A DNA stretch of 39,156 nt from a virus (Duplodnaviria; Heunggongvirae; Uroviricota; Caudoviricetes), in the IMG/VR virus record IMGVR_UViG_2695420487_000015; one strand, written 5' to 3'. The notes beneath the pieces are model-generated. The model had not been told where the DNA came from. It worked only from the letters and a program-made list of their open reading frames with translations, and searched no databases. Positions 1,598 to 33,577 of the stretch are shown here, piece by piece. Position numbers and translations under genes: made by a program. Numbering within the stretch: position 1 is the first letter of the stretch; each line of letters begins with the position of its first letter.

Positions 1598-1673
1598 GGC
1601 CCTTTAGCTCAGTGGTTAGAGCAGGCGACTCATAATCGCTTGGTCGCTGGTTCAAGTCCAGCAGGGGCCACCA
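1598..1673 (+). tRNA. ileY: tRNA with CAU anticodon, tRNA-Ile2 (lysidine) type, 76 nt with encoded CCA
   Basis: Cloverleaf read by hand: acceptor GGCCCTT/AGGGGCC, D-arm GCTC/GAGC, anticodon loop CTCATAA, T-loop TTCAAGT, 3' ACCA. Near-identical to the E. coli ileX/ileY sequence as I recall it. Confidence 0.85.
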
Positions 1674-1676
1674 AAT
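1628..1676. repeat. attL core: 49-bp direct repeat covering the 3' 46 nt of the tRNA plus 3 nt
   Basis: 48/49 identical to 33529..33577; the single mismatch is at 1664 (G here, A in the attR copy). Confidence 0.85.
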
Positions 1677-1700
1677 TTTAGCTTTATAATCATATAATTA

Positions 1701-1725
1701 AGCCACTCTAGCGAGTGGCTTTTTT
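1701..1725 (+). terminator. Intrinsic terminator downstream of the tRNA
   Basis: Hairpin AGCCACTC-tagc-GAGTGGCT followed by TTTTTT. Confidence 0.6.
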
Positions 1726-1791
1726 GTTATCTTGTTTTCAAGTGGCGATGAAATGGCGGTGGATTTTTTACCACCACTTTCATGAGCACAT

Positions 1792-1818
1792 AAAAAAACC
1801 CGCGCGCGGCGGGTCTTT
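1792..1818 (-). terminator. Intrinsic terminator downstream of ogr
   Basis: GC-rich hairpin CCCGCCGCGCGCGGG followed on the minus strand by a 7-nt T-run. Confidence 0.6.
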
Positions 1819-1830
1819 AGAGAAAATTTA

Positions 1831-2049
1831 TCAGAGCCACAATGGCCGCTGACCACTCACCGACGGGTGAGGTGGCGCCGGAATTATTGTTCCCGGTGTA
1901 ACGATAAAACGTTCTACAGACTCCATCGTTACGAATGTGCAACTGCAATTAATATTCGTACATTGATGGTAACGCTCTTTAGTATTCTCGCTAAGATAGC
2001 GACTGGTACGAGCATGCGCTGCATGCTGGCATTTTGGACAATGGAACAT
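1831..2049 (-). CDS. ogr: Late gene transcriptional activator, Ogr/Delta zinc-finger family
   Basis: 72 aa, MFHCPKCQHAAHARTSRY...CTNINCSCTF, Cys4 pattern and strong similarity to P2 Ogr as recalled. Confidence 0.9.
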   Translation of the reverse strand: MFHCPKCQHAAHARTSRYLSENTKERYHQCTNINCSCTFVTMESVERFIVTPGTIIPAPPHPSVSGQRPLWL

Positions 2050-2088
2050 GCCACCCCCACATATTCACAAAAAGTGAATTAATAATAC

Positions 2089-30184: not shown

Positions 30185-30210
30185 TACTAATACTCGATTG
30201 AGTATTAGTA
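30185..30210. promoter_or_regulatory. Perfect 11-bp inverted repeat (TACTAATACTC-gatt-GAGTATTAGTA), candidate operator in the cI/apl switch region
   Basis: Read directly in sequence, 21 nt upstream of the cI start; overlaps minus-strand TTTACT-17-TAGTAT promoter-like elements facing apl. Confidence 0.5.
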
Positions 30211-30230
30211 AATACCCAAAGGAATAAATT

Positions 30231-30806
30231 TTGATACTTGATACTCAGGTGAATAACGACGAGTTACTGGATAGAATCTGTCAAGTATATGGTTTTACTC
30301 AAAAAATCCAGCTAGCCCGGCATTTCAATATTGCCGCCAGTTCCCTACAAAACCGCTACACGCGAGGCACTGTTTCTTATGATTTTGCCGTACAGTGCGC
30401 ATTAGAAACCGGGGCAAGCCTACTATGGCTTCTTACGGGGCAAGGCTCTCAATATGACGGCAAAAAGTCTCCAACGGATCCGAAAACGATAGACGCCTTC
30501 ACTCTTAGTGATGGAAAGCTCGAAGAAAATTCACCATTGAGTATTGATGCTGGTTTCTTTAGTAAGCAAATGTCAAAAGGTATTGCTGTTCGCGCCGATG
30601 GAAAGCTGCACTTTATAGAACAAGATGCCTCACTTTCTGATGGCCTTTGGTTGGTTGATATTGAGGGGGCTACCAGCATCAGAGAATTGACGCTCCTACC
30701 CGGTAAAAAGTTACACGTTGCTGGCGGCAAAGTACCGTTTGAGTGCGGGATAGATGAGATAAAAACGATTGGCCGTGTAGTGGGTGTATACAGCGAGGTT
30801 AATTGA
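30231..30806 (+). CDS. cI: 186 CI-like immunity repressor
   Basis: 191 aa, TTG start preceded by AAAGGAA; similarity to 186 CI as recalled; stop overlaps the int start. Confidence 0.75.
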   Translation: MILDTQVNNDELLDRICQVYGFTQKIQLARHFNIAASSLQNRYTRGTVSYDFAVQCALETGASLLWLLTGQGSQYDGKKSPTDPKTIDAFTLSDGKLEENSPLSIDAGFFSKQMSKGIAVRADGKLHFIEQDASLSDGLWLVDIEGATSIRELTLLPGKKLHVAGGKVPFECGIDEIKTIGRVVGVYSEVN

Positions 30807-31810
30807 TGACTGTCCGTAAAAATCCGGCTGGCGGTTGGATTTGTGAGCTCTACCCAAACGGTGCAAAAGGCAAACGTATCAGAAAGAAATTCGCTACTAA
30901 AGGCGAGGCGCTGGCGTTTGAGCAGTACACCGTTCAAAACCCGTGGCAGGAAGAAAAGGAAGACAGGCGCACGTTAAAAGAGTTGGTTGATTCATGGTAT
31001 AGCGCTCATGGCATTACACTGAAAGACGGCTTGAAACGCCAGCTAGCCATGCACCATGCTTTTGAGTGTATGGGCGAACCACTTACACGCGATTTCGATG
31101 CGCAGATGTTTTCCCGCTACCGAGAAAAACGGTTAAAAGGCGAGTACGCCCGTTCAAACAGAGTGAAAGAGGTATCGCCTCGCACGCTTAATCTTGAGCT
31201 GGCCTACTTCCGGGCTGTGTTCAATGAGCTAAACCGCCTCGGAGAATGGAAGGGTGAAAACCCACTGAAAAACATGCGCCCATTCCGCACAGAAGAAATG
31301 GAAATGGCCTGGCTGACTCACGACCAGATTTCGCTACTGCTCGGAGAGTGTAAACGGCATGACCACCCTGATTTAGAAACTGTGGTAAGAATTTGTCTCG
31401 CCACTGGCGCACGGTGGTCTGAGGCCGAGAACCTGAGAAAAAGCCAGCTTGCGAAATACAAAATCACATACACCAACACGAAAGGCAGAAAAAACCGCAC
31501 CGTTCCAATTAGCAAAGAGCTCTATGATTCTCTGCCTGATGATAAAAAAGGCAGGTTGTTTAGTGATTGTTATGGCGCGTTCCGGTCTGCGCTGGAAAGA
31601 ACAGGCATCGAATTACCGGCAGGGCAACTTACCCATGTTTTACGCCACACCTTCGCCAGTCACTTTATGATGAATGGTGGTAATATTCTGGTCTTGCAGC
31701 GCGTGCTCGGTCATACCGACATCAAAATGACAATGCGTTACGCACATTTCGCCCCAGACCATCTGGAGGATGCAGTAAGGCTAAACCCACTGAACAACAA
31801 CAGAGATTAG
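30806..31810 (+). CDS. int: Tyrosine integrase
   Basis: 334 aa from ATG 30806; C-terminal R..H..R..Y catalytic signature (HVLRHTFASH, MRYAHF). Confidence 0.9.
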   Translation: MTVRKNPAGGWICELYPNGAKGKRIRKKFATKGEALAFEQYTVQNPWQEEKEDRRTLKELVDSWYSAHGITLKDGLKRQLAMHHAFECMGEPLTRDFDAQMFSRYREKRLKGEYARSNRVKEVSPRTLNLELAYFRAVFNELNRLGEWKGENPLKNMRPFRTEEMEMAWLTHDQISLLLGECKRHDHPDLETVVRICLATGARWSEAENLRKSQLAKYKITYTNTKGRKNRTVPISKELYDSLPDDKKGRLFSDCYGAFRSALERTGIELPAGQLTHVLRHTFASHFMMNGGNILVLQRVLGHTDIKMTMRYAHFAPDHLEDAVRLNPLNNNRD

Positions 31811-31820
31811 CCCCATTAAG

Positions 31821-33284
31821 TCATTTGCCGAGCATCTCTCTTAAATCTTGAGCCCAATGCGTATCGTCAGATTGGATCGTTCCTTCAACATCAGTAAGCA
31901 GTTTTTGCTCAAGAATTGTCTCGGCATTTCGACTCTGGCTAAAGTATCTTACCGTTTCGGCAAAGTCCCAATTCTCATCTGCAAGCAGGCGCGGCTGGAA
32001 AGAATGACAGTAGATTGCAGCTATATCTTTACCCATAAAGTCAAAATCAGAAATCAATTCGCAAATTTTCATATCACGTGCAAATTCGATCTGAGGGCCA
32101 TGCAAGGTTTCATATCCAATATGAATTATTGTTGATTCTCCAATCGGAGCCTGCTTTACAGCCTGAACAAGTACCCTTTTTATATCTTTTGCCTTTTTAT
32201 CGACAGACTCATCAGCGAGACAAATCCATTTTGCGCAGAAAGGCATTTCTATCTCATCAATGAATACATTTATTGTACTAAGTTCATCATTGCTAAAAGT
32301 GCATAACTTTGCGTTGCAAACCATTGTATAACTTCCAAACGGGTCATACTGGTCATCTAATAAGGAATTTAATTGAGGAGAAGGATATTTCACATGCCAC
32401 TTTCTTAAGTGGTTATCCACCCGTTCCATATCAATTAAGTTAGCCTGAACCAAAATATCATCGCTCTCACATACTGCAATCTTACCTTTCACAAGATGAT
32501 CAGAGCCGTAAATTTTTGCTACAGCACCGAGAAACACATCGATACGCGTTTTTACTATTTCAGTTTTGAAAATCACATCAAAAAAAACTGGCTTATGGTA
32601 TCGAGTAATCAATGGTCGAGCCATTTCCCACCGCTTCAACCACTCCGCCCTTTCTTCTTCTGAGTACTGAGTCACCTTTGCTAATCGCTTGCACTCAACA
32701 TAAAAAATATCAGTGCCTTTAACAACTTTGAGGTCTGGTGTTTTATGAGCTCCTGTTTCTGGAATGAACTCAACTTCCCAGCCATTTTTCAAATAGCAGA
32801 TAGCCACAACCAACTCAAACAAAATGGAATCAGGCTGGTTGATTGTCTTAACAAGCAAGTCATTTAATTTGGATTCAATACCTTTGACCTGCTTCAACTT
32901 TTCGCTATGTTCACCGATAACTGCGAAAAAATGCCAAATTCTTGACGACTGAGCTGGCTCATCTACTGTTGGGCGATCAGCCAAAGATTCAACTAAGTAC
33001 AAATACCATGCAATCCAGTCATCATAGAATGCCAGGCGTGCATCTTTCTCATGGAAAGAAACGTCAGATTTTCCTGTGAAAAGGCGCTCCGACATTTCGC
33101 GGAAGTAAGCCAAAACCGCCCCACGACGCTCAACCCATTTATCTTCACCCATTACATCAATAAACCAACGGTATGCTGTTTTTATCTCTTTGACTAATGG
33201 TGCATCATGTCTATGATTGAAGCGTTCAAAAAATGCAGCATACTCATCTTCAACACTCTGATTTTTGGTATTTTTTTCACCCAT
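31821..33284 (-). CDS. Cargo gene: 487-aa protein with PD-(D/E)xK-like nuclease core motif, candidate defense or abortive-infection protein
   Basis: AT-rich. Start at ATG 33284 (MGEKNTKNQ) with an AGGTGG RBS. Central GWEVEF..(12)..TPDLKVV..(7)..IFYVECKRL fits the E..PD..ExK pattern. Lies between int and attR. Confidence 0.55.
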   Translation of the reverse strand: MGEKNTKNQSVEDEYAAFFERFNHRHDAPLVKEIKTAYRWFIDVMGEDKWVERRGAVLAYFREMSERLFTGKSDVSFHEKDARLAFYDDWIAWYLYLVESLADRPTVDEPAQSSRIWHFFAVIGEHSEKLKQVKGIESKLNDLLVKTINQPDSILFELVVAICYLKNGWEVEFIPETGAHKTPDLKVVKGTDIFYVECKRLAKVTQYSEEERAEWLKRWEMARPLITRYHKPVFFDVIFKTEIVKTRIDVFLGAVAKIYGSDHLVKGKIAVCESDDILVQANLIDMERVDNHLRKWHVKYPSPQLNSLLDDQYDPFGSYTMVCNAKLCTFSNDELSTINVFIDEIEMPFCAKWICLADESVDKKAKDIKRVLVQAVKQAPIGESTIIHIGYETLHGPQIEFARDMKICELISDFDFMGKDIAAIYCHSFQPRLLADENWDFAETVRYFSQSRNAETILEQKLLTDVEGTIQSDDTHWAQDLREMLGK

Positions 33285-33528
33285 CGTGATTCCACCTAGC
33301 TTATGCGGTTTATGCATTCAAGATTAACTAACTTGCATGTTATCATTTTTGATATCAGGCAAGTGTTAGTCACGCTATAAAGGCTAGGTTGCCGTTTAAA
33401 GGCAATATGATAAGTGGCGATAAAGTGGCGGTAGAAATGGCTGATAATGTCTAATCACTGGCAAACGCTGGCCATTTATGTCAATGATAAATAAAGCAAA
33501 CTATTGATTTTCGGTTGTTCAGGTAGGA

Positions 33529-33577
33529 ACTCATAATCGCTTGGTCGCTGGTTCAAGTCCAGCAAGGGCCACCAAAT
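33529..33577. repeat. attR core: 49-bp copy of the tRNA 3' end
   Basis: 48/49 identical to 1628..1676. Confidence 0.85.

Follow-up and report, generated by a model that had tools for sequence, protein, structure and literature searches.

A 186-type prophage at ileY and the U6·G67 wobble of a hybrid tRNA-Ile2 gene

P4, HP1 and P22 are examples of elements that integrate into tRNA genes. In this class, attP reportedly carries a 3' segment of the tRNA gene and the crossover falls in the anticodon loop, as is said to have been described by Reiter et al. in 1989 and by Williams in 2002. The integrated element has an intact tRNA gene at one end and only a 3' fragment at its opposite end, the enzyme is a tyrosine integrase, and a block of identity runs from the anticodon stem to past the CCA. 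We analysed a 39,156-nucleotide (nt) stretch of viral DNA (IMG/VR record IMGVR_UViG_2695420487_000015; the whole stretch is called the window) that shares all of these traits. It differs from the class in that the phage copy of the tRNA segment matches ileX, a paralogue of the tRNA gene found here, and in that integration changed one base pair of the tRNA, which is therefore not perfectly restored. We hold it to be very likely that the window is the Escherichia coli ileY locus with a prophage of the coliphage 186 type, whose 3' segment brought a G at tRNA position 67 and thereby produced a hybrid tRNA.

The closest described relative is coliphage 186 (Eganvirus ev186; U32222 / NC_001317), for which ileY as well as ileX is given as an integration site in a survey of P2-like phages (PMC3448106). 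The integrase of the window was identical to 186 Int at 322 of 329 residues (98%; BLASTP), and the two share the core (tRNA-Ile2 positions 31-76 with G67), the target ileY, the arm-site consensus in both arms and the order CI-int-attP-B-D; their attP regions aligned with 86.6% identity over 366 nt. The rest of the window prophage is distant from 186 in DNA (the best phage records reached about 76% over about 54% of the query), and it has a 498-aa open reading frame (ORF) in place of the small Orf69 as well as an O-acetyltransferase moron. In the 186 record, a stretch of 36 bp is labelled 'in common with attB ... 3' end of ileY'; it covers positions 31-66 and ends just before G67; therefore, the mismatch had already been recognised by its annotators. 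The phenomenon is thus the ordinary, documented behaviour of 186-type integration at ileY and already known. In the literature, 186 was listed at ileY and ileX, and we found no open-access paper stating the U·G consequence. As a discovery it matters little; it is a clean worked example.

ARAGORN and Rfam found a single tRNA gene in the window, at 1598-1673 on the plus strand, with the anticodon CAT. By its sequence this gene is E. coli ileY, coding for tRNA-Ile2 (CAU), in a hybrid form with a host part of about positions 1-31 and a phage part of about positions 39-76. It was identical to ileY of K-12 MG1655 at 75 of 76 positions, the sole difference being position 67, and RefSeq labels ileY as tRNA-Ile in every genome fetched. 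The TilS identity pairs C4:G69 and C5:G68 are present together with the CAU anticodon. ARAGORN named the gene tRNA-Met; this name derives from the CAT anticodon only and was overruled by the RefSeq label and the identity to K-12 ileY. The gene lies between a ygaQ-like alpha-amylase gene on one side and ypjC (DUF5507/DUF5508) on the other. The left flank plus the tRNA was 100% identical to E. coli strain 10 (NZ_CP048330.1), and the flanks are of the K-12 type (300/300 identical to MG1655). The acceptor stem reads 5' GGCCCTT / 3' AGGGGCC, with T6 (1603) opposite G67 (1664), which gives a U6·G67 wobble.

A 49-bp direct repeat at 1628-1676 and 33529-33577 (both on the plus strand) was identical at 48 of 49 bases, the only difference being G at 1664 versus A at 33565. 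The first copy is the attL core, made of tRNA positions 31-76 plus AAT with G67. The second is the attR core, the displaced 3' end of the host ileY (31-76 plus AAT) with the native A67, and is annotated as 'tRNA-OTHER' in RefSeq. The A at 33565 would form a Watson-Crick pair with U6. An earlier note on this DNA, made from the letters alone, had called the gene tRNA-Ile2 and had set U6/G67 against the A at attR; the identification and the coordinates both agree with our reading. The repeat did not arise by chance, because both copies bracket a complete P2/186-type prophage of 31.9 kb. When we reconstructed attP by fusing the two prophage ends, right to left, it aligned across the junction with the attP of the free phages 186, EtG, GCS667, BIS20 and MDG45.

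The two alleles can be assigned in two ways. The U6·G67 pair could be native to the host, as it is in E. coli 042, with the A at attR derived from the phage and the crossover located 3' of position 67. We counted allele-flank junctions in 5,426 complete E. coli genomes with 55-nt queries centred on position 67, counting places that covered at least 80% of the query; with the 28-nt megablast word these queries are selective only against the mismatching allele, and ileX and tRNA-only places were still hit over 37-40 nt. In favour of a native G67, 365 genomes have this allele next to the host right flank, the nine such sites inspected were prophage-free with U6·G67, and two of them (PK-F-10122 and Ec-U9-2) have a right flank of the K-12 type. 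The host side, however, points the other way for the window. We built an empty site from 698 nt of the left flank, the tRNA with A67, AAT and 823 nt of the right flank, and it matched at 100% as one 1600-nt piece in K-12 MG1655, C600, ATCC 8739 and many other strains. Therefore, prophage-free strains with identical flanks carry U6-A67, as the earlier note had supposed for the host before integration, and its own refuting case, that such strains already have G67, fails. MG1655, to which the window flanks are 300/300 identical, has A67. In 2728 genomes, the host right flank adjoins A67.

On the phage side, G67 was present in the attP of all five free phages, none of which has A67. G67 was joined to the left-end (P') prophage flank in 48 genomes (55-nt attL junction), and A67 was joined to this flank in 0 of the 5,426 genomes. 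The attR junction (P arm, core, host flank) was found in 52 genomes, 14 of which were 100% identical to an 87-nt query with A67. Members of the attR classes at 98.9% and 97.7% were also inspected (QEC11-421; 675SK2, MRSN346595, MLI106K4 and an engineered K-12); their differences fell within the P arm, or else at position 43 plus the host flank, but never at 67.

The engineered strain, a K-12 MG1655 (NZ_CP174267.1) that received a luxR construct at ileY via the 186 attP, is the strongest single piece of evidence. The native K-12 ileY has A67. In the engineered genome, U6...G67 runs into the 186 P' flank at attL, and at attR the 186 P arm precedes ...A67 and the host flank. This near-experimental control of the allele split amounts to the kind of check that the earlier note had called for. 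The genome is an example of the CRIM/OSIP-type chromosomal integration vectors, which use 186 Int and attP; it has the same attL G67 and attR A67 at ileY as the window and differs in its synthetic cargo (luxR and others). Vectors with 186 Int and attP convert ileY of K-12 to the U6·G67 form. Together with the attP alleles and the linkage of 48 versus 0 genomes, the split bears out the earlier proposal that the phage-supplied 3' end brought the G. A native G67 in the window is thus effectively refuted, and we give it hardly any probability; in a second host haplotype, moreover, positions 43 and 67 change as a unit, which places the crossover 5' of 43.

A sequencing error would also leave G and A at the two ends, and so would a point mutation after integration, whether the tRNA changed from A to G or the unselected remnant from G to A. 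Drift is unconstrained in a remnant without function, and no signal can be smaller than a one-base difference. However, dozens of independent assemblies, from two host haplotypes, repeated the same two alleles at these junctions, and each allele equals its presumed parent exactly, G in attP and A in the empty host site. A sequencing error, which the earlier note had allowed for, is ruled out by the 55-nt G67 attL in 48 genomes and the 87-nt A67 attR in 14 genomes at 100%. This explanation as a whole is highly improbable.

The crossover was mapped with natural alleles. The lysogens 675SK2, MRSN346595 and MLI106K4 carry the same prophage type in the second host haplotype. In attL of this type, the host A28 is joined to the phage T43 and G67, and attR has C43 and A67. 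Prophage-free NRZ95651 ileY has A28, C43 and A67, and its flanks were 299-300/300 identical to those of 675SK2 and MRSN346595 (MG1655 reached only 281-286/300). Therefore, the exchange took place between tRNA positions 28 and 43. This interval (positions 29-42) contains the anticodon loop (32-38), in which the 7-bp crossover predicted in the 186 GenBank record falls; in the window this predicted overlap is CTCATAA, at 1629-1635 on the plus strand. The earlier note had put the crossover to the right of position 67. It must lie 5' of 67, and the claim contradicts the note's own model, because a phage-supplied G67 in the intact tRNA requires an exchange 5' of that position. Natural alleles at positions 43 and 67 thus allow the crossover to be mapped from genomes alone.

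The mechanism is very likely the following. The phage attP carries a copy of tRNA-Ile2 positions 31-76 in the ileX form (G67) and not in the ileY form (A67), and Int, a tyrosine recombinase, most likely swaps strands in the anticodon-loop segment. After integration, the gene at attL is a chimera of a host 5' part (U6) and a phage 3' part (G67), and the host 3' part with A67 stays at attR as a promoterless remnant. The net effect is the change of a U6-A67 pair to a U6·G67 wobble. The sequences show the allele of the host, that of the phage, the flank to which each is linked and the interval of the crossover.

The source of the G is apparent from ileX, the second tRNA-Ile2 gene, which lies between mug and nfeF and has C6-G67. 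The hybrid tRNA of the window differs from ileX at position 6 alone; therefore, the phage segment is an exact ileX-type 3' half. A GTDB scan with one genome per species found the U6 form confined to E. coli and Shigella, plus short contaminant contigs. U6 in ileY, mostly with A67, is therefore peculiar to E. coli, and the phage segment agrees with the general form. No outgroup with U6 that could polarise position 67 was found among the GTDB species representatives. Because the attP copy matches ileX while the phage often lands in ileY, lysogeny edits one tRNA base pair. The contaminant contigs are short, carry E. coli ileY with its flanks and occur in the assemblies of Streptomyces sp. Ru62/71/72/73, Umezawaea beigongshangensis, an Enterobacter sp. 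and a Bacillota metagenome-assembled genome; they are almost certainly E. coli contamination of species-representative genomes.

No observation contradicts this mechanism, and three caveats go with it. G67 next to U6 is by itself no proof of phage origin, since prophage-free sites have it too (G67 adjoins the host right flank in 365 of 5,426 genomes, and the nine inspected are empty sites), and the case for the window therefore rests on flank linkage. Furthermore, the alleles place the crossover in an interval, 29-42, and not at exact cleavage positions, and the function of the hybrid tRNA is a prediction. The conclusion for the window is not weakened by the empty sites with U6·G67, because its flanks are of the K-12 type (300/300) and its attR keeps A67.

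The nine inspected U6·G67 sites (042, PK-F-10122, Ec-U9-2, BS-01, CM2, 1190, VCSW7, O158:H23 and SW4848) were spread over several flank haplotypes; in 042, ileY lies at 2462-2537 of the fetched locus. Among the nine, only PK-F-10122 and Ec-U9-2 combined G67 with a K-12-type right flank, and 1190 and SW4848 have A28, T43 and G67, the chimera of the 675SK2-type attL. With a 134-nt query, the tRNA was joined directly to the host right flank in 2931 genomes, and 32 records matched 042-type empty sites at 99% identity or more, a query that does not cleanly separate the alleles. The U6·G67 pair at empty sites might be a footprint of earlier 186-type lysogeny, a reading that we consider unlikely. Homologous recombination between the 49-bp repeats, with resolution 3' of the mismatch, would then have removed the prophage in place of Int excision; if this were true, the tRNA gene would record past phage occupancy. 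Alternatively, U6·G67 is possibly an old polymorphism, the intermediate in a series C6-G67 to U6·G67 to U6-A67, which the phage merely restores, and recurrent mutation is a third possible origin. The ileY gene of BS-01 (1462-1538) has an extra A in the T-loop (TTCAAAGTCC) besides G67, which may reflect either damage to the gene or a sequencing error in a homopolymer.

BL12, GS04, BHD6, HCP8S3_I1 and MSB1_1D also have the exact attR junction, in which the A67 core stands between the P arm and the host flank. BHD6 has no junction of the left flank with ileY, and the other four have only two tRNA-Ile2-like places each, which suggests that the five genomes hold prophage remnants after deletion of ileY and the left part of the prophage.

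The predicted effect on the tRNA is small. Nearest-neighbour calculation gave a cloverleaf energy of -30.4 kcal/mol for U6-A67 and -30.1 kcal/mol for U6·G67, a predicted cost of 0.3 kcal/mol. The identity elements of E. coli TilS are reported to be the pairs 4:69 and 5:68, and an inversion at 6:67 is tolerated in Burkholderia (PMC11947777). Pair 6:67 already differs between ileX (C6-G67) and ileY. The hybrid U6·G67 tRNA is probably still functional, because the energy cost is small, 6:67 lies outside the TilS set and the pair varies between ileX and ileY; the occurrence of U6·G67 at many prophage-free sites and the fact that integration at ileY leaves ileX intact also argue for this. About 2,300 of the 5,426 genomes have one tRNA-Ile2 3' half, that of ileX, and no ygaQ-ileY-ypjC junction; ileY is therefore an accessory, dispensable gene, and its variability and dispensability in E. 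coli explain why the change is tolerated.

The ileY gene is highly polymorphic in E. coli. In one allele, C43 accompanies an anticodon-stem mismatch of A28 with C42; the gene lies at 1462-1537 in NRZ95651 and at 1457-1532 in EDL933 (coordinates of the fetched loci), and that of EDL933 has T42, C43 and C44. We considered the EDL933-type 3' half as a phage relic and rejected it, as it had no exact phage match; the best were the Yersinia phages YeP1-3 at 95.7%. The hybrid of the 675SK2 type combines A28·C42, G27·U43 and U6·G67, and its predicted cloverleaf stability falls, from -28.7 to -24.8 kcal/mol.

The prophage body (1677-33528) was assigned to the 186-like phages (Eganvirus, Peduoviridae) on the basis of Pfam, megablast and RefSeq annotation of the same type. 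PF05840 and PF05954 were matched, and megablast matched Eganvirus genomes. The genes are ordered B/ogr, gpD, tail and head genes, terminase, portal, gpA, Cox/Apl-like, CI, Int and the 498-aa ORF. As in P2/186-like Peduoviridae, gpA, gpD, a P2-type capsid, terminase, portal and tail genes stand in P2 order; the genes of the body include a B/ogr homologue (about 1831-2049, minus strand), gpD (2089-3282, minus), terminase (20679-22448, plus), portal (22439-23485, plus) and gpA (25790-28030, minus). The 186-type module, an Apl/Cox-type excisionase and a 186-type CI divergent from the lytic operon, was also found. It consists of a Cox/Apl-like excisionase and repressor ORF (29835-30122, minus; phrog_575, E = 3.8e-9; the true start is probably internal) and a 186-type CI repressor (30231-30806, plus; PF07022, PF16452). 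The tyrosine integrase gene follows at 30806-31810 on the plus strand (PF24624, PF00589) and ends about 1.7 kb from attR.

The arm-type sites of Int were predicted with the consensus YAYCGCCAYTY, taken from the phage 186 record, which matched six times in the window against 0.41 expected. Two predicted sites lie in the P' arm (1740-1761) and two in the P arm (33412-33433), all on the minus strand. A phage-supplied hairpin with a T-run (GCCACTC-tagc-GAGTGGC-TTTTTT; 1700-1726, plus strand) aligned with the terminator feature of 186; it corresponds to the terminator predicted for the lysogenic operon of 186, and its present place is just downstream of the tRNA.

The 362-aa and 237-aa ORFs in the tail/baseplate block (13681-14769, minus; 12699-13412, plus) had no match in PHROGs, NCBIfam or PADLOC. 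In related prophages, the corresponding place has a RefSeq 'hypothetical protein' some 361 aa long (12022-13107 of one locus). The 498-aa ORF (31821-33317, minus) between int and attR matched phrog_37220 (unknown function) only, and nothing in Pfam, NCBIfam or PADLOC. In 186 this slot is occupied by the small Orf69 and in QEC11-421 by a PIN-domain protein (788-1945 of its locus), so that it resembles a site for variable cargo beside attP. The region from the portal gene to gpA, which in P2 contains old/tin, has the O-acetyltransferase-like moron (23953-25170, minus; phrog_3333); in QEC11-421, a gene of the reverse-transcriptase family takes the equivalent place (11707-12657 of its locus). In the right flank, the ypjC-like gene is split into a DUF5507 ORF (34325-34807, plus) and a DUF5508 ORF (34907-35698, plus); K-12 ypjC is likewise split and is a RefSeq pseudogene with an internal stop.

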